Shown piece by piece: positions 1 through 25,719 of a stretch of DNA of 32,000 nucleotides. Under the pieces are notes generated by a model, which had not been told where the DNA came from, did no database searches, and saw only the letters and a program-made list of their open reading frames with translations. The stretch lies in NCBI RefSeq assembly GCF_017753665.1, contig NZ_CP072524.1, positions 260,281 through 292,280 on the forward strand, given 5' to 3'. This stretch comes from Neisseria sicca (GTDB taxonomy: Bacteria; Pseudomonadota; Gammaproteobacteria; Burkholderiales; Neisseriaceae). A program made the position numbers and the translations under genes. Within the stretch, counting starts at the first letter, position 1, and each line of letters starts with the position of its first letter.

Positions 1-111
1 TTCCAGACGGTCTTTAAAGAAGCAGTCGAACAAATACATGCCAATGGGGTGGGATATAGGGTATTTGTGGAGAGGCTGGAGAAGTTTTTGAAGGAAGAGG
101 TTTTTTTGTGA
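1..111 (+). CDS. 3' end of an ORF truncated by the window edge; unknown function
   Basis: Frame 1 is open from base 1 to TGA at 109-111 (..FQTVFKEAVEQIHANGVGYRVFVERLEKFLKEEVFL*). It is AT-rich like the two genes that follow and too short to classify. Confidence 0.3.
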   Translation, partial: FQTVFKEAVEQIHANGVGYRVFVERLEKFLKEEVFL

Positions 112-158: not shown

Positions 159-167
159 TGTTATAAT
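159..167 (+). promoter_or_regulatory. Candidate extended -10 promoter element (TGTTATAAT) for the ATPase/PIN cassette
   Basis: TGnTATAAT match at 159-167, about 48 nt upstream of the ATG at 215. It lies after the upstream ORF stop (111), with AAAGG at 201-205 as a possible SD. No convincing -35. Confidence 0.35.
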
Positions 168-214: not shown

Positions 215-1507
215 ATGCTTCAAAAGATCCATATACAAAATTTTAAAAGTTATAAAAATCAGGATTTACACCTTGCTCCATTGACTTTAATGATTGGTGC
301 AAATGCTTCCGGTAAAAGTAATGCGATTGAAGCTTTTAGATTTTTATGTTGGTTGGCTGGCGGCCAGAAATTATCGGTTTTACAAAATGCAGTTAATGAT
401 TCAGAAAAAATTATTCGAGGGAATGTATGGGATTTATTTTACCCTGAGTCAGGCTCCTTTGTTTTAGGGGGTACTACGGATGATAAAGCATGGAATACTT
501 TCGAAGTGGAGTTGGATTTAAGAAATAATGAAGAATTACATATAAAGCAGGAAAAAATCACTGCTGTTGATGAGAAAGTGCCTTTGTATGAAATTAAGCA
601 AATATCGAAGGGTTTGGGAACAGATGTCAGCGTGGCATACAATAATTTTGCTAAAGGAATGAAACCTCAAATTCGCTGTACAGACCAAATCACTATCATG
701 AATCAACTATCCGGTCCGGCACCGTTTGCGGCAAAAGATAAAAAAGCGCAAAAAGAAATTCCAAAAATTACTAATAGATTTCAAGAATTACTTAGTAATA
801 CCTTATTTTTAGACCCTGTTCCATATTTAATGAGAGAAGATAGTTATCCGAATAGAAGGCTTCAGGGGAATTGCTCGAATTTGTCCGGTGTACTTTATAC
901 GCTATGGGAAAATGAAAAGAATCGACCGGCTATTCTTGATTTCATAAAAAGTTTGCCAGAGCAGGATATCAAAGATATTCGATTTTCAAAAAATGGTAGG
1001 GGGGAAGTTTACTTAGAATTGGTTGAAAATTTTGGAAATCAAGAACGAAGTCAGTCTGCCGGATTACTTTCAGATGGTACTTTGCGTGTCTTGGCTATTG
1101 CCGCCGCTTTGTTGTCAGTTCAGGAGGGTTCGACTGTTGTGATAGAGGAGGTTGATAATGGAATTCATCCTTCAAGGGCAAGGCAGTTGCTGGAAACTAT
1201 GCAAAGACAAGCCGAGAAAAGAAAAATCAGATTATTGCTTTCAACTCATAATCCTGCTCTGATGGATGCACTTCCTGATAATGCGTTAGGTGATGTGGTC
1301 TTTTGTTATCGCGATATGAAAGAAGGGGATAGCCGTTTAATTAAACTATCTGACTTATCCGATTATCCTGAGTTGATTCTGCAGGGTAAGTTGGGAGGAT
1401 TGGTCACAAAAGGTATTGTTGACCGTTTTGTGAAAAATCCTGTTGATAAGGAAGAGAAAAAGCGGAAGGCTTTAGCATGGCTGGAAAATATCAAGGGGAA
1501 TTCGTGA
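215..1507 (+). CDS. ABC/SMC-like ATPase of the AAA_21/AAA_15 type (430 aa), candidate defence-system ATPase
   Basis: Walker A GANASGKS (res 28-35), signature-like LSDGTLRVL, Walker B/D-loop VVIEEVDNGIHP and H-loop LSTHNP, in the order typical of stand-alone ABC-type ATPases paired with nucleases. AT-rich codon usage unlike the neighbouring core genes. Confidence 0.85.
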   Translation: MLQKIHIQNFKSYKNQDLHLAPLTLMIGANASGKSNAIEAFRFLCWLAGGQKLSVLQNAVNDSEKIIRGNVWDLFYPESGSFVLGGTTDDKAWNTFEVELDLRNNEELHIKQEKITAVDEKVPLYEIKQISKGLGTDVSVAYNNFAKGMKPQIRCTDQITIMNQLSGPAPFAAKDKKAQKEIPKITNRFQELLSNTLFLDPVPYLMREDSYPNRRLQGNCSNLSGVLYTLWENEKNRPAILDFIKSLPEQDIKDIRFSKNGRGEVYLELVENFGNQERSQSAGLLSDGTLRVLAIAAALLSVQEGSTVVIEEVDNGIHPSRARQLLETMQRQAEKRKIRLLLSTHNPALMDALPDNALGDVVFCYRDMKEGDSRLIKLSDLSDYPELILQGKLGGLVTKGIVDRFVKNPVDKEEKKRKALAWLENIKGNS

Positions 1508-1992
1508 TGAATTCGATATGTATTATTGATACCAGTGTTTTTTTGAATATTCTAGATGTGCCGAACAGAAATAATGAGAAAGAGAGAGTAATTAATAATT
1601 TTAAAGAATATATTAACTTAGGAGCGACGTTTATGTTACCTATGGCTACTGTTTTGGAAACAGGAAATCATATTGCTCAAAATGGAGATGGTAATGTGCG
1701 GAGAAAAACGGCACAGAGATTTTGTAATCATGTTCGTCAAGCTATAACAGGGGAAGCTCCTTATCGGACCAGTGATTTTCCAGATACGGGAGAGGTATTG
1801 AAATGGTTGGCTGAATTTCCTGATTCGGCAGGTAGAAATAAGACTCCTGATAGACATGAAGGAACAAGTTTTGGGGATTTAAGCATCATCAAGGAATATG
1901 AGAAAGCCAAATTCAAATCTCCTATGAGTGAAATTTGGATTTGGTCTCTTGATAGTGATTTGAAAAATTATCATTACAAGCCTAATCAATAA
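1507..1992 (+). CDS. Small PIN-like domain protein (161 aa), putative nuclease partner of the ATPase
   Basis: The ATG at 1507 shares its A with the ATPase stop (GTGATGA, 1504-1510), with AAGGGGA at 1494-1500 as SD. The N-terminus MNSICIIDTSVF resembles PIN strand 1. The acidic positions D8, E51 (LETGNH), D124 (FGDLSII) and D149/D151 (SLDSDL) have PIN-like spacing. The track ORF starts 30 nt earlier at 1477, which I consider less likely. Confidence 0.7.
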   Translation: MNSICIIDTSVFLNILDVPNRNNEKERVINNFKEYINLGATFMLPMATVLETGNHIAQNGDGNVRRKTAQRFCNHVRQAITGEAPYRTSDFPDTGEVLKWLAEFPDSAGRNKTPDRHEGTSFGDLSIIKEYEKAKFKSPMSEIWIWSLDSDLKNYHYKPNQ

Positions 1993-2114: not shown

Positions 2115-4967
2115 ATGAAACTATCCGAACTGTTTAACCCCAACGAATTTGCCGCGCGGCATTTGAGTTTCGGCGACGAGGCTGCGCTTTTGGAAGCGCT
2201 CGGCGAGAAGAACATGGACGACTTTGTCGGCAACACCGTGCCGCAAAGCATCCGTATGCCGTCCGAACTCGACCTGCCCGAAGCACTGACCGAGGCGGAC
2301 GCTTTGGCGAAGCTGAAAGCCATTGCGGCGAAAAACGTGATCAACAAATCCTATATCGGTTTGGGCTATTACCCGACCCGCGTGCCGAATGTAATTTTGC
2401 GCAACGTATTGGAAAATCCGGGTTGGTACACTGCCTACACCCCGTATCAGGCGGAAATCGCACAGGGACGTTTGGAGGCTTTGTTGAACTTCCAACAAGT
2501 GTGTATCGATTTGACCGGTTTCCCTGTGGCAGGCGCGTCTTTGTTGGACGAGGCAACTGCCGCCGCCGAAGCGATGGCGATGGCGCACCGAGTGGGCAAA
2601 GTGAAATCCGAGCGTTTCTTTGTGGATGCGCGCGTCTATCCGCAGACTTTGGACGTGATGAAAACCCGCGCCAAATATTTCGGCTTTGAACTGGTGGTCG
2701 GCGATTTTGCCCAAGCGGATGAAGGCGAATACTTCGGCGCGCTGCTCCAATACGTCGGCAAAGACGGCGATGTACAAGACTTGCAGGATGTTATCGGCCG
2801 TCTGAAAGCCAAAGGTACAATCGTGGCCGTTGCCGCCGACATCATGAGCTTGGTTTTGCTGAAATCACCTGCTGAGTTGGGTGCAGACATTGCTTTGGGC
2901 AACACCCAACGCTTCGGTGTGCCGATGGGCTTCGGTGGTCCGCACGCTGCTTATTTCGCGTTTAAAGACGAGTTCAAACGTTCCGCTCCGGGACGCATCA
3001 TCGGCGTATCCAAAGATGCATCGGGCAAACCTGCCTTGCGCATGGCTTTGTCCACACGCGAGCAACACATCCGCCGCGAAAAAGCGACATCCAATATTTG
3101 TACCGCACAGGCATTGCTGGCGAACTTGGCGGGCATGTATGCCGTCTATCACGGCCCTGAAGGTGTGAAACGCATTGCCAACCGCATTCATGCGCTGGCT
3201 TCTGCCTTTGCCGATGCGCTGGTTTCAGACGGCCTGAATGTGGTTCACAAAGTCTTCTTCGATACCGTTACTGTCGATTTCGGTAGCAAAGAGAAAGCAG
3301 ACCAAGTGTTTGCCGCTGCTTTGGAATCGGGTTACAACCTGCGCCGCGTTAACGATACTCAAGTTGCGGCTGCATTCCATGAAACGTCGGCATACGAAGA
3401 TTTGGTCGATTTGTACCGCGTGTTTACCGGCAAGGATACGTTCACATTTGCCGATGATGTCAAAGGCCGTCTGAACGCCGAATTACTGCGTCAGGACGAC
3501 ATTCTGCAACATCCTGTGTTCAATAGTTACCATACCGAACACGAAATGTTGCGCTACCTGAAAAAACTCGAAGACCGCGACTTGGCGATGAACCGCAGCA
3601 TGATTTCATTGGGCAGCTGCACCATGAAACTCAACGCGACTGCGGAAATGTTGCCGATTACTTGGGCTGAGTTCACCGACATCCATCCTTACGCTCCCGA
3701 AGCGCAAACCGCCGGCTACCGCGAATTGCTTGCCGATATGGAAAACAGCCTGAAAGCCATCACTGGCTTTGACGCGATTTCCTTCCAGCCCAACTCCGGC
3801 GCGCAGGGCGAATACAGCGGTATGCTCTCTATCCGCCGCTATCAGGAAGCCCAAGGCGAAGCGCACCGCAATATCTGCCTGATTCCCAAATCCGCACACG
3901 GCACCAACCCCGCCACCGCCGCCATGCTCGGGTTGAAAGTCGTCGTTGTCGATACCGACGAACACGGCAACGTCAACATCGACGATTTGAAAGCCAAAGC
4001 CGAACAACACCGCGACGCCTTGTCCGCCATTATGATTACCTACCCGTCCACCCACGGCGTGTACGAAGAAGGCATCCGCGACATCTGCCGCATCATCCAT
4101 GAAAACGGCGGACAGGTTTACATGGACGGCGCCAACCTCAACGCCCAAATCGGCATCATGCAGCCCGCCGAAGTCGGCGCGGACGTGTTGCACATGAACC
4201 TGCACAAAACCTTCTGTATCCCCCACGGCGGCGGCGGCCCGGGCATGGGTCCCATCGGCCTGAAAGCCCACCTTGCCCCGTTTGCCCCAGGCCATACCTT
4301 GACCGACACGCACAGCGCAAGTGCCGGGCAAACCGCCGTTTCCTCCGCCGCCTTCGGTTCCGCGTCCATCTTGCCGATTACCTGGATGTACCTGACCATG
4401 ATGGGCAAACAAGGCATGGAACAGGCAACGCGCTGGGCATTGCTCAACGCCAACTACGTCGCCAAACGCCTGAGCGAAGACTATCCCGTTCTCTACACAG
4501 GCAAAAACGGCCGCGTCGCGCACGAATGCATCGTCGATTTGCGCCCGCTCAAAGCCGAAAGCGGCATCACCGAAACCGACATCGCCAAACGCCTGATGGA
4601 CTACGGCTTCCACGCCCCGACCGTCTCCTTTCCCGTTGCCGGCACGCTGATGATCGAACCGACCGAAAGCGAGAGCAAAGCCGAACTCGACCGCTTCATC
4701 GCAGCCCTGAAGCAAATCAAGCAGGAAGTGTTGAAAGTCGAGAGCGGCGAATGGCCGAAAGACGACAACCCGCTGGTCAACGCCCCGCACACCGCCGCCG
4801 ACGTAACCGGCGAATGGGCGCATCCGTACTCCCGCGAAGAAGCCGTCTTCCCGCTGCCTTTCGTGCGCGAAAACAAATTCTGGCCGAGCGTCAACCGCGT
4901 GGACGACGTGTACGGCGACCGAAATCTGGTCTGCTCCTGCCCGCCGATGGAAGCGTATGAAGATTAA
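2115..4967 (+). CDS. gcvP: Glycine dehydrogenase (decarboxylating), glycine cleavage system P protein
   Basis: 950-aa ORF with the characteristic GcvP sequence throughout ([27 protein letters not shown], the PLP-lysine region [16 protein letters not shown]). AGGAG SD at 2105-2109. Confidence 0.97.
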
Positions 4968-4981
4968 GGTTTGACATGAAG

Positions 4982-5020
4982 AAAGGCCGTCTGAAAATTT
5001 CAGACGACCTTTGTTTTAAA
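4982..5020. terminator. DUS inverted-repeat terminator after gcvP
   Basis: AGGCCGTCTGAA (4984-4995) and TTCAGACGACCT (4999-5010) form a hairpin followed by TTGTTTT. Confidence 0.8.
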
Positions 5021-5229: not shown

Positions 5230-5645
5230 GGTTTTTTCCTTTCTGTTTGGTGTGCAAACGGTTTGATGTGCAAACGGTTGAGGGAGATCTGTCCGTTTTT
5301 TGTAGGTGTTAACAGTTTTAATTACTTAATCAACTATCTTATTGATTAATTTAATACTCACGGATGTAACCGCTTATAGTACACCTTATCGGATAACCTC
5401 CGACTTAGCAAACCGTAACAATACAAATTTTCAAGAAATCAGCCCATTTATAAAATAACCAAACCATAAATCAACAACTTACATACAGACGTTAAGTTTT
5501 GAAAACATTTATATTTTATCAATTAAAGATTGCAGAGGAAATTTTCTTGTTAAATCAATATGAAAAAATAAGGATATATTAATATTGAAGGAATGTTTTG
5601 AAACCGTTTATTTGGATATTTTAGAAGAAGCGGAGCAGGAAAGAC

Positions 5646-5680
5646 AAAAGGTCGTCTGAAAAATTTCAGACGACCTTTTG
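5646..5680. terminator. DUS inverted-repeat terminator downstream of the U32 peptidase gene
   Basis: AGGTCGTCTGAA (5649-5660) and TTCAGACGACCT (5665-5676) form a perfect hairpin flanked by A/T runs, directly after the minus-strand stop at 5682. Confidence 0.8.
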
Positions 5681-5681
5681 A

Positions 5682-7034
5682 TTATTTGATGACCCGTGCC
5701 AACAAGGCTTTTTCTTTGCCCTGCATATTCGGGATTTTGACTTGGATGCCGTTGCCTGGGGCGACTTCGACGGCTGCGCCTTTACGGGTCATTTGTTCCA
5801 GCGTAATGGTTTGGTTGCCTTCGGGATGGATGATTTCCAAAGTATCGCCGACGGCGAAGCGGTTTTTAACTTCCACCGTTGCCCAGCCTTCGGCGTCGAT
5901 TTCGGTAACATGTCCGACGTATTGGCTTTGTTTGGCGGTGGAATGGCCGCTGAGGTAGTTTTGATAGTCTTGGGTTTGGTGGCGTTCGAGGAAGCCGCTG
6001 GTGTAGCCGCGGTTGGCGAGGCCTTCGAGTTCGCTCAGCAAGCCGTAGTCGAACGGGCGGCCTGCGACGGCATCGTCAATCGCTTTGCGGTAGGACTGGG
6101 CGACACGGGCGACGTAGTAGAGCGACTTGGTGCGGCCTTCGACTTTGAGGCTGTCCACGCCGATTTTGGCGAGTTTTTCAACGACTTCGATACCGCGCAG
6201 GTCTTTGGAATTCATGATATAGGTGCCGTGTTCGTCTTCCATAATCGGCATCATTTCGCCGGGACGGTTGGACTCTTCAATCAGGAAGACTTTGTCGGCG
6301 TAGGGGTGGCGTTTCTGACCGTTGATGCCTTCGAAGTTTTGGTTGGCTTCTTCTTGGGCTTTTTCAAAGTTGAAACCTTGCAGAAGCTGGGCGTCGCCCG
6401 CATCGCTTTCAGTGGCGTTGTGGACTTTGTAATCCCAACGGCAGGAGTTGGTACAGGTACCTTGGTTGGGGTCGCGGTGGTTGAAGTAGCCGGAGAGCAG
6501 GCAGCGGCCTGAATAGGCGATGCACAATGCGCCGTGGATGAAGACTTCGAGTTCGATGTCGGGGCATTCTTGGCGGATTTCGGCGATTTCTTCCATGCTC
6601 AATTCGCGCGACAGGATGATGCGTTCGACGCCGATGTTCTGCCAGAATTTCACGCCCCAATAGTTGGTGGTGTTTGCCTGTACGGACAGGTGGATCGGCA
6701 TTTCCGGCCATTTTTCGCGCACGGTCATAATCAAACCCGGATCCGCCATAATCAGCGCGTCGGGTTTCATGGCAATCAGCGGCTCCATGTCGGCGACGAA
6801 GGTTTTGAGTTTGGAATTGTGCGGCAGGGTGTTGACGGTCAAAAAGAATTTTTTGTTGCGCTCGTGCGCTTCTTTAATGCCTTGCTCGAGGACGTCGAGT
6901 TTGGCAAATTCGTTGTTGCGGGCGCGCAGGGAGTAACGCGGGCTGCCGGCATAAACGGCGTCTGCGCCGTAATCGTAGGCGGCGCGCATACGTTCGAGGC
7001 CGCCGGCGGGAAGGAGGAGTTCGGGTGCTTTCAT
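5682..7034 (-). CDS. yegQ: U32 family peptidase / tRNA hydroxylation protein (YegQ/TrhP-like)
   Basis: 450-aa ORF. The N-terminal PELLLPAGGLERMRAAYDYGADAVY and the central cysteine-rich CIAYSGRCLLSGY...GTCTNSCRW motif are typical of U32 (PrtC/YegQ) proteins. Confidence 0.9.
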   Translation of the reverse strand: MKAPELLLPAGGLERMRAAYDYGADAVYAGSPRYSLRARNNEFAKLDVLEQGIKEAHERNKKFFLTVNTLPHNSKLKTFVADMEPLIAMKPDALIMADPGLIMTVREKWPEMPIHLSVQANTTNYWGVKFWQNIGVERIILSRELSMEEIAEIRQECPDIELEVFIHGALCIAYSGRCLLSGYFNHRDPNQGTCTNSCRWDYKVHNATESDAGDAQLLQGFNFEKAQEEANQNFEGINGQKRHPYADKVFLIEESNRPGEMMPIMEDEHGTYIMNSKDLRGIEVVEKLAKIGVDSLKVEGRTKSLYYVARVAQSYRKAIDDAVAGRPFDYGLLSELEGLANRGYTSGFLERHQTQDYQNYLSGHSTAKQSQYVGHVTEIDAEGWATVEVKNRFAVGDTLEIIHPEGNQTITLEQMTRKGAAVEVAPGNGIQVKIPNMQGKEKALLARVIK

Positions 7035-23903: not shown

Positions 23904-24086
23904 GCGATTTTAACTTCATTGCATCTGCTATTTCAGGCGGTTTGAACCTAAAAAGTAGCCTTAGTAGCCTTACTTGCCTTTCAAATAGCTTGAAAATGTC
24001 GGATTTGTTAATCTAGGCTACAAGCCTAAACCTGATTTTCCAGCAATTGTTTATTTTCCTATTGTAAAGACAAGGATGCCGAAATT

Positions 24087-24707
24087 ATGGATACTCTGAT
24101 TATCAACGCACACCCTGACCCGTATTCCTCTGCTTCCGCCACCAATCGCATGGTTGCACACCTGTTATCCAAACTGCCCGTAGGTAGTGCACAAACTGTT
24201 AATTTGGCAGAGACTGACATACAGCCGCTGGACAAAGCGGTTCTGGAAATGTTTGTCGCAACTGTGTTCCAAGAGCAGCAGCCGAATGCGGAACAGACCG
24301 CTTTGCTGGCACGACTGATGTCGGTAGTAAATCAAGTCAAATCCACCCGCCGACTCGTCATTGCCTATCCGATGTACAACTTCGGCATTCCCGCCCGTTT
24401 GAAAGACTGGTTAGATAATTTAGTTGTGCCTGGCGAAACGTTCCGCTACGGAGCGGATGGTACACCGCGAGGGCTGATGAGTGCGCACAAAGTACTACTG
24501 TTTCAGGCTAGTGGTAGTGTTTATACTGATGGACCGATGGCGCAAATGGATTTTGCCTCGAGCTATCTGAAAACGCTGCTTGGCGGCTTTTTAGGTTTTG
24601 CTTCAGTGGACACTATCTATGCCGAAGGCACGGCGAGTAACTGGGATGTAGCGGTTCAACGCGCCTGTGCAGAAATTGATGTTGTATTCGGTAGTTTTAC
24701 GGCCTAG
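24087..24707 (+). CDS. azoR: FMN-dependent NADH-azoreductase / flavodoxin-like quinone reductase (AzoR family)
   Basis: 206 aa. The N-terminal INAHPDP and the YPMYNFGIPARLKDWLDNLVVPGETFRY block match the AzoR/Flavodoxin_2 signature. Confidence 0.8.
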   Translation: MDTLIINAHPDPYSSASATNRMVAHLLSKLPVGSAQTVNLAETDIQPLDKAVLEMFVATVFQEQQPNAEQTALLARLMSVVNQVKSTRRLVIAYPMYNFGIPARLKDWLDNLVVPGETFRYGADGTPRGLMSAHKVLLFQASGSVYTDGPMAQMDFASSYLKTLLGGFLGFASVDTIYAEGTASNWDVAVQRACAEIDVVFGSFTA

Positions 24708-24791
24708 TTGCTCAAACTGGTTAGTTATATCCACGCGGATTACAAGTAGCCTAGCAATACTGGGCTTACTAAACCAATATAGAAAAACGTT

Positions 24792-25199
24792 ATGGAACAG
24801 CATATTAACTACATCACGCTCGGCGTAGGCGACCTTGCTATTTCCCGCCGTTTTTACCAAGACATATTCGGTTGGCAGGAAACGGTGGACAGTAATGAAA
24901 ACATTGCGTTTTTTGAAACAGGAAGCGCGCTGCGGTTTGCTCTGTTTGGTAAGGAAGCCTTAGCGCAAGACGCGCAGGTATTAGTGCAGGGTAGCGGTTT
25001 TCCATGTTTTACGTTGGCGCATAATGTCGGCAGCGAAGCTGAAGTGGATGCATTGTTTTCTGAGCTCGCCTCAAAAAATGTGAATATCGTCAAAGCCCCG
25101 CAGAAAGTATTTTGGGGCGGATACAGCGGCTATATCGCCGACCCCGATGGCTTTTTATGGGAAATTGCCTTTAATCCGTTTTTGCAGAAATTACGCTGA
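24792..25199 (+). CDS. VOC (glyoxalase/bleomycin resistance/dioxygenase) family protein
   Basis: 135 aa. INYITLGVGDLAISRRFYQDIFGW and the C-terminal GYSGYIADPDGFLWEIAFNP are typical of the VOC fold. Confidence 0.8.
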   Translation: MEQHINYITLGVGDLAISRRFYQDIFGWQETVDSNENIAFFETGSALRFALFGKEALAQDAQVLVQGSGFPCFTLAHNVGSEAEVDALFSELASKNVNIVKAPQKVFWGGYSGYIADPDGFLWEIAFNPFLQKLR

Positions 25200-25277
25200 A
25201 ATAGCACGATAAAGGTTACTTGAAAACGGCAGCTTCAGCGAAGTAAAAATCAAATTTGCTTACCCGAAAGCCGAGTC

Positions 25278-25583
25278 ATGAAACGCTATATCGCTCCATC
25301 CGTTTGCTATGCACTTGCTGTTGCGCTGTGGTTGCTGTCCATCTATTGCGAAATCCGTGCTTTGTCGTTAGCCGATTTGAAAACCCTGACCGGTGACGAT
25401 GTGGAAGGTGCAATAAGGTGGTCGAATTACGGATTTAGCGCATTTGCCGTATCCTGTTTTGCCACCGCGATCGGCAGTTGGTTGATGCCGCGGTTTAAAA
25501 GCTGGGAGCGTGTAGCGTTTACAGTGAGTGTCACCTTAGGATATACCTTGCTGGCGTGGTTCGTAACAATATTATTGATTTGA
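25278..25583 (+). CDS. Hypothetical small membrane protein (3 predicted TM segments)
   Basis: 101-aa ORF with three hydrophobic stretches and no recognisable family. Coding status is supported only by length and hydrophobic periodicity. Confidence 0.5.
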   Translation: MKRYIAPSVCYALAVALWLLSIYCEIRALSLADLKTLTGDDVEGAIRWSNYGFSAFAVSCFATAIGSWLMPRFKSWERVAFTVSVTLGYTLLAWFVTILLI

Positions 25584-25719
25584 TTGCTTAAGGTTTGAAA
25601 AGACTATCTGAAAGCGACAGCCCCAACAAAGTTAAAAAGCAGCCTGCACCCCACCAAGCAAACAGGTCGTCTGAAAACAAAATCTGATAAAAAGTTAATT
25701 AGTTGATTGAGAACATAAC

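Follow-up and report, generated by a model that had tools for sequence, protein, structure and literature searches.

We analyzed a 32,000-nucleotide stretch of Neisseria sicca DNA (contig NZ_CP072524.1, positions 260,281–292,280 of the forward strand; hereafter the window) that carries, near its left end, a cassette of two same-strand, overlapping genes. We call these genes A (215–1507, 430 aa) and B (1507–1992, 161 aa). The cassette lies beside gcvP, and the local gene order is gcvT-gcvH-tag-[A-B]-gcvP. The GC fraction was 0.33–0.43 over positions 1–2100 versus 0.54–0.64 in gcvP, as expected from the first-pass annotation, which had described two same-strand open reading frames (ORFs) on an AT-rich patch and had proposed them as an undescribed defence or abortive-infection cassette. 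The features of the locus are as follows (DUS, DNA uptake sequence; SD, Shine-Dalgarno).

1–2025, no strand: AT-rich accessory island, from empty-site alignment and GC; the full insert starts 12 nt before the window
159–167, plus: putative extended −10-like element TGTTATAAT, read from the sequence
200–205, plus: SD-like GAAAGG of gene A, likewise read off
215–1507, plus: gene A, PDC-M07A, ABC-type (AAA_21/AAA_15) ATPase, 430 aa, from PADLOC, Pfam, AlphaFold and Foldseek
296–319, 1067–1081, 1133–1156 and 1244–1255, within A: Walker A, signature LSDGT, Walker B/D-loop and H-loop, respectively
1493–1509, plus: coupling junction (AAGGGGA and one-base TGA/ATG overlap), from the sequence, with the overlap kept in the family
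1507–1992, plus: gene B, PDC-M07B, PIN-fold putative metal-dependent RNase, 161 aa, from PADLOC, AlphaFold and Foldseek
1528–1530, 1657–1659, 1876–1878, 1951–1953 and 1957–1959, within B: catalytic candidates D8, E51, D124, D149 and D151, respectively
2027–2061: right-hand DUS pair, AGGTCGTCTGAA on the minus strand at 2027–2038 and ACGCCGTCTGAA on the plus strand at 2050–2061, from DUS scan and empty-site alignment

The two genes share base 1507, which belongs both to the stop codon of A (TGA, 1505–1507) and to the start codon of B (ATG, 1507–1509), and an SD-like AAGGGGA is found at 1493–1499, 8–14 nt 5' of the junction. Gene callers start B at an in-frame ATG at 1477 (171 aa); the N-terminus conserved in the family (48 homologues) corresponds to 1507. 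The cassette had also been credited with an extended −10 of its own. TGTTATAAT at 159–167, 5' of A, does match such an element as far as its letters go, but a generic sigma-70 promoter scan passed it over on account of its poor −35.

Both proteins were assigned to one catalogued family by comparison with PADLOC-DB v2. Protein A matched the PDC-M07A model PDLC04392 at full length (E 2.5e-206, residues 1–428 of 432) and four more PDC-M07A models at E ≤ 6.8e-90. Protein B matched the PDC-M07B model PDLC04395 (E 1.8e-75, residues 1–159 of 161) and five more M07B models, and its PADLOC matches were PDC-M07B models only. PDC-M07 is CAS_00050 (FAM_00005>>FAM_01367) in the table of candidates of Payne et al. 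(bioRxiv 10.1101/2024.01.29.577857), where its count is 406; it is among 145 phage defence candidates that were drawn from genes lying within BREX, DISARM or type I restriction-modification (R-M) systems, and that those authors call untested. The window copy shares with the family both full-length protein matches, the gene order and the adjacency of the genes, and showed no family-level difference. We concluded that the cassette is almost certainly a PDC-M07 family member, which adds one more copy to a predicted defence candidate and does not represent a new kind of system. Because both proteins are full-length PDC-M07 matches, the earlier view of the ATPase and PIN pairing as undescribed was abandoned: the PADLOC check showed that the pairing is already catalogued, as a candidate, although no validated system was matched.

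Protein A matched Pfam AAA_21 at 8.4e-32 (111.9 bits, cut-off 27) and AAA_15 at 2.1e-18. The full ABC/AAA_21 motif set that had been read from its sequence was confirmed: GANASGKS, LSDGTLR, VVIEEVD and STHNP are all present, and the core residues are invariant in 43 homologues of 62–69% identity. These invariant residues are G28–S35, Q51, L285–T289, I310/E311/E312/D314 and T344–P347, covering Walker A, Q-loop, signature, Walker B, D-loop and H-loop. The AlphaFold model (predicted local distance difference test, pLDDT, 85.3) had a beta-rich first insert and was without a coiled-coil arm, and in Foldseek it matched SMC heads, Septu/retron PtuA, Rad50 and OLD at E ~1e-12. A protein search returned more than 4,000 relatives of A at E ≤ 1e-20. 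We concluded that A is an ABC ATPase with a complete motif set and an ABC-head fold.

The match of this fold to SMC and Rad50 heads brings up the reading that the pair serves housekeeping DNA repair or chromosome maintenance, with a RecF/SMC/Rad50-like ATPase and a structure-specific nuclease. Weak RecF and RecN matches of A in NCBIfam, and one UniRef name (RecF) for a homologue, point the same way. However, those scores were far under the cut-offs (neither A nor B reached any NCBIfam model's cut-off), and A has no coiled-coil arm. The patchy distribution driven by horizontal gene transfer, the presence/absence polymorphism within Neisseria, the foreign composition, and the embedding of the pair in R-M and Wadjet operons, all described below, also argue against a repair role, which we regard as very improbable.

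For protein B, no Pfam model scored above threshold: PIN_12 reached 15.8 bits (cut-off 32) and PIN 12.7 (cut-off 23.6). Sub-threshold PIN_12 matches were seen in 35 of the 48 B homologues. Searches of PDB sequences with the single sequence and with a profile gave chance matches only (GMP synthase, chemoreceptor coiled coil); therefore, the PIN assignment rests on fold and motifs. The AlphaFold model was of high confidence (pLDDT 91.7), and the 22 best-ranked Foldseek matches in the PDB were all PIN proteins, most at probability 0.97–1.00 and with template modelling (TM) scores up to 0.67. They included VapC (4xgq), N. gonorrhoeae FitB (2h1c), VapC20 (5wzf), Nmd4 and PAE0151. The acidic residues that had been singled out at PIN-like spacing (D8, E51, D124, D149 and D151) proved invariant in 48 B sequences, as did 40 further positions of the 161. 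By our reading, the B motifs DTS, LETGNH, GDLSII and SLDxDL are similar to the four motifs of VapC, and the family has in addition its own invariant motifs, LPMAT-x-LETGNHIAQNG-x-G and EGTSFGD. The B family comprised 908 clusters in a protein search. The model thus supports the earlier call of a PIN-like second protein, and indicates that B is a PIN-fold protein keeping the complete acidic tetrad.

We examined synteny in 80 genomes with B, drawn from Gamma- and Betaproteobacteria and many Cyanobacteria. Gene A lay directly upstream of B in 79 of them, the remaining locus being cut off at a contig end, so that the two genes are syntenic in other genomes as had been asked. The stop and start codons overlapped in 71 of 77 scorable loci (by 8 nt in 47, 4 nt in 22 and 1 nt in 2), and the 1-nt overlap of the window cassette is the same as in the latter two loci. 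Since the overlap is kept across loci, translational coupling is conserved, and the interpretation of the shared base and upstream AAGGGGA as a coupled unit was upheld. Both genes were under purifying selection in 113 close locus pairs, with ratios of non-synonymous to synonymous rates (omega) of ~0.03–0.3.

The genomic context of the pair often involves defence operons. Type I R-M genes were found ≤5 kb from the pair in at least 26 of the 80 loci, typically as hsdM-hsdS-[A-B]-hsdR, all in the same orientation; this count is a lower bound from locally built hidden Markov models (HMMs) on many short contigs. No R-M or Wadjet gene was detected beside the pair in 52 of the 80 loci with these local HMMs, short contigs being common. 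In two loci the pair stood between Wadjet jetC and jetD (L001:5341-11657 and L010:5317-11656, from Oceanobacter and Parathalassolituus). Independent confirmation came from the RefSeq annotation of the conjugative plasmid pAQU1, which has the same hsdM-hsdS-A-B-hsdR five-gene operon with overlapping genes. Of the three contexts from which the PDC-M07 family was originally derived (BREX, DISARM and type I R-M), the last recurs in these 26 loci. Eight plasmids carried the A-B pair, and four of them were conjugative. We concluded that the PDC-M07 pair is conserved, co-translated, mobile and often embedded in defence operons. In contrast to the embedded members, the window copy is solo, sits in a DUS-flanked Neisseria island and has a fast-evolving B allele.

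A mobilizable Acinetobacter plasmid of 9,137 bp (L182, NZ_CP039153.1; pair at 3167–4988) carries A-B with a RelE/ParE toxin-antitoxin pair and a qac efflux gene as direct neighbours.

These contexts, together with the fold of B, bear on a second reading, in which the cassette is a selfish addiction module of toxin-antitoxin type: B would be a VapC-like toxin and A its ATP-dependent neutralizer, and the pair would stabilize its carrier DNA (plasmids, R-M operons, islands) rather than stop phage. B's predicted fold and acidic tetrad match those of VapC and FitB, including 2h1c, the pair occurs on plasmids such as the 9-kb Acinetobacter one with its RelE/ParE neighbours, solo genomic contexts are common, the HEC-03 analogue discussed below is toxic when induced, and one UniRef name for a homologue is 'Type II toxin-antitoxin'. 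VapBC and FitAB nevertheless differ from the cassette in that a small DNA-binding VapB/FitA-type antitoxin is absent here, the upstream partner being an ABC ATPase of 430 aa whose catalytic motifs are intact, and in that the family-specific invariant motifs of B escape the VapC Pfam models. Recurrent insertion into the same slot of type I R-M and into Wadjet operons is, moreover, the behaviour of defence modules such as PrrC, and toxin-antitoxin and abortive-infection roles can coexist. We consider a purely selfish function unlikely.

In Neisseria, the limits of the cassette could be placed precisely by alignment with the empty-site loci L104, L103 and L123, in which homology stops at −13 and resumes at 2026. 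The insert spans window positions −12 to 2025 (2,038 bp) and stands in place of a 37-bp AT-rich spacer that exactly fills the interval between the arms of an inverted DUS pair. Of this pair, the left arm is GAGGTCGTCTGAA (L090 3311-3323, shortly before the window begins) and the right arm is the minus-strand AGGTCGTCTGAA at 2027–2038. A tag-anchored metagenome scan showed that the tag-gcvP junction is polymorphic in Neisseria, being empty, occupied by A-B, or occupied by other cargo. Empty sites measured 58 or 139 nt (L103, L104, L123, L127, L134), and the A-B cassette was present in 5 contigs; the other inserts ranged from 0.6 to >6 kb and encoded a TonB_C protein, an MFS transporter, a GDSL lipase and hypothetical proteins. 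Contigs with identical GcvP all held the cassette, with no empty site among them, and the whole window was identical to KV808180.1 of GCA_001812225.1.

The cassette itself was 99.8–100% identical across Neisseria lineages, compared with 94–96% for the flanking gcvT, tag and gcvP. In Kingella denitrificans, A was 97% nucleotide-identical at another locus (valS-A-B). We concluded that the cassette is horizontally acquired foreign DNA; the data fit recent lateral exchange by transformation, and its transfer among strains and genera probably occurs through natural transformation together with homologous recombination in the flanks. The tag-gcvP island resembles a 'minimal mobile element', an idea familiar from Neisseria. 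The initial reading of a two-gene ABC/AAA_21 ATPase and PIN pair, horizontally acquired and linked to defence in other genomes, was borne out.

The window contains 37 DUS-like sites, the first at 2027, of which 24 are AGGTCGTCTGAA; the canonical GCCGTCTGAA occurs only 7 times. The dialect of this host is thus AGGTCGTCTGAA, which we take to be the N. mucosa/sicca type, and not GCCGTCTGAA as had been supposed. It had also been pointed out that the cassette lacks DUS. There are indeed none in 1–2026, but DUS-free gaps of 2.5–4.8 kb occur elsewhere in the window and for this reason we rejected DUS depletion as uninformative about foreign origin. The informative fact is the inverted DUS pair that brackets the island. 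Many of the DUS sites in the window form inverted pairs after genes. A 54/72-aa ORF (window 1–110, continuing upstream; L083:9734-9952) overlaps the 3' end of tag and enters the left edge of the island; it had no Pfam match, was absent at the Kingella locus, is unannotated in the NCBI record, and is probably not a gene.

Several experimentally studied systems resemble the cassette in part. PARIS shares the logic of an ATPase scaffold or sensor with a separate nuclease effector, and A is similar to AriA (PADLOC 1.6e-30, residues 175–351). In the 2024 PARIS structures, the effector nuclease is reportedly released to cut tRNA. PARIS differs in that AriB is a TOPRIM/DUF4435 protein whereas B has a PIN fold, and PDC-M07A models outscored AriA by far on A. 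Septu and retron PtuAB are similar in that PtuA chains (8eea, 8ee4, 9n6b, 9nnb) were among the closest solved structures to A (E ~1e-12). However, the TM scores were 0.4–0.55, A scored 26.3 bits against the NCBIfam PtuA model (cut-off 500), and PtuB is an HNH protein, which B is not.

HEC-03 of Pseudomonas cichorii, an ABC ATPase/DUF3696 protein with a VapC-like PIN partner, has been shown to defend against phage; both of its genes are needed and induction is toxic (Payne et al., 10.1101/2024.01.29.577857). Like the cassette, it consists of two overlapping genes encoding a ~430–460 aa ABC ATPase followed by a ~160 aa PIN-fold protein. Using the HEC-03 sequences from the supplement of Payne et al., we found HEC-03A and A to be collinear over 400 aa at 22% identity (E 2e-10), a similarity at superfamily level only, and HEC-03A was absent from the best 25 PADLOC matches of A. 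HEC-03B was not detectably homologous to the B family (hhalign probability 3.7%), and B had no HEC-03B PADLOC match at E ≤ 1. By these sequence comparisons, PDC-M07 and HEC-03 are of the same architecture but belong to different, non-orthologous families.

By analogy with these systems, the function of the cassette would most likely be that of an ATPase-controlled RNase in abortive infection. Protein A would act as sensor and regulator, keeping B switched off until a cue from a phage or plasmid, which might be foreign nucleic acid or an anti-restriction protein, shifts the ATP-dependent state of A; the four-acid Mg2+ site of B would then cut host or invader RNA (tRNA or rRNA, in the manner of VapC-type PIN proteins), so that translation would stop and the infection abort. 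In this Neisseria, the module is a stand-alone 2-kb island with its own promoter-like element, inserted between inverted DUS arms in the tag-gcvP spacer. On the whole, we judge it rather probable that the cassette is a working defence or abortive-infection module. The specific model in which A sequesters B and releases it on cue is put forward more tentatively.

A number of points weigh against this reading of the cassette as a defence module. A main-text literature search for 'PDC-M07' returned no papers, and no experiment on the family was found; the validation papers that we checked had tested candidates other than PDC-M07, and two other PADLOC candidates, PDC-M63 and PDC-S04, failed when tested. 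No phage record with B was present in INPHARED. The likeness of B to PIN proteins is at the level of fold only (Foldseek E ~3e-3, TM 0.5–0.67; PIN_12 sub-threshold), and the sensing, the sequestration and the RNA targets are entirely inferred, the steps of sensing, control of B and RNA cleavage being drawn from analogy with HEC-03, PARIS and VapC biochemistry. No recognizable defence gene stood beside the Neisseria copy, the rest of the window being housekeeping. The idea that tag-gcvP is a defence hotspot was rejected, as its alternative cargo had no PADLOC matches.

The uneven evolution of the two genes in Neisseriaceae belongs to the same set of points. There, A was near-invariant even between Neisseria and Kingella (omega 0–0.13), whereas B (in the window and at L083, L099, L102 and L118) was mosaic and fast-evolving, with omega of 0.7–1.1 in close pairs. 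B fell into two allele classes of ~70% amino acid identity, and between the window and Kingella the synonymous divergence (dS) was 0.53 for B versus 0.10 for A. In one comparison, B had 17 non-synonymous changes against 6 synonymous ones, whereas A had 19 changes, all of them synonymous (Fisher p = 5e-7). In a metagenomic Neisseria copy (L155, 1962–2449), B is frameshifted near residue 47, which may mark a true pseudogene or a chimera that arose when two B alleles were assembled together. Clades outside Neisseriaceae showed purifying selection on both genes. The Neisseriaceae pattern in B could reflect diversifying selection on the effector surface or, less favourably for a defence role, relaxed constraint.

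Relaxed constraint on B would suit a further reading, in which the pair is an accessory of type I R-M. Here, the pair would be a PrrC-like sentinel that fires on R-M inhibition, and the Neisseria copy a partnerless orphan drifting to loss of function. The prr locus has the order hsdM-hsdS-prrC-hsdR, and PDC-M07 homologues fill the same hsdS-hsdR slot with an ABC-type NTPase and a, here predicted, RNase; in the at least 26 loci described above this arrangement comes with overlapping genes. PrrC itself is almost exclusively embedded in type I R-M (Payne et al., 10.1101/2024.01.29.577857). The contrasting rates and change counts of A and B in Neisseriaceae, and the one frameshifted B copy, are likewise what a decaying orphan would show. 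PrrC and RloC are, however, single polypeptides with a HEPN-type nuclease, as opposed to two proteins and a PIN fold in PDC-M07, and the window copy has no adjacent R-M genes. Furthermore, the 52 loci with no R-M or Wadjet gene detected beside the pair (the association being a lower bound), and the occurrence of the pair in Wadjet operons and on small plasmids, speak against a strict dependence on R-M. All family-invariant residues were kept in every intact Neisseria and Kingella B allele, and the strong purifying selection on A would be surprising in an orphan remnant. We therefore view an R-M accessory with a decaying Neisseria copy as decidedly unlikely.

We return to a defence role, for which a more detailed proposal can be made, although we hold it to be doubtful. 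PDC-M07 may be a back-up of restriction, in which the ATPase would detect phage counter-defence (e.g., anti-restriction proteins) or DNA that escapes R-M or Wadjet, and would then unleash a PIN RNase distinct from VapC and HEC-03B. In competent Neisseriaceae, the pair may have become a free-standing, DUS-bracketed 'minimal mobile element' exchanged between genera, with its effector surface under diversifying selection, perhaps from phage-encoded inhibitors.

Other variable or AT-rich sites were observed in and around the window. Some Neisseria contigs (L084:7384-8628 and L085:7384-8628) have an extra 414-aa ORF with no Pfam match between gcvT and gcvH, a second variable junction in the cluster. 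A second AT-rich patch (5250–5700, GC 0.30–0.32) lies between a 52-aa ORF after gcvP and the peptidase U32 gene. The 1.8-kb gap between pheS and pheT (23904–25719) contains a 206-aa Flavodoxin_2/FMN-reductase ORF at 24087–24707; the pheS-pheT junction is well known in Neisseria as a site of 'minimal mobile elements'.

The value of the cassette as a discovery is limited, in that the family is already catalogued and its architecture has an experimental precedent in HEC-03. What remains of value is that the pair recurs inside type I R-M operons, that empty and occupied sites can be compared cleanly, and that effector and ATPase evolve so unequally. The recurrent hsdS-hsdR position suggests a link to anti-restriction sensing, which could help to identify the trigger. 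Should the predicted function hold, PDC-M07 would be a second, independent ABC-ATPase and PIN lineage beside PARIS, Septu and HEC-01/02/03, and the cassette would be one of few candidate abortive-infection modules in commensal oral Neisseria. The locus is also a clean example of how cargo of a defence type probably enters a polymorphic intergenic site through DUS-mediated transformation.

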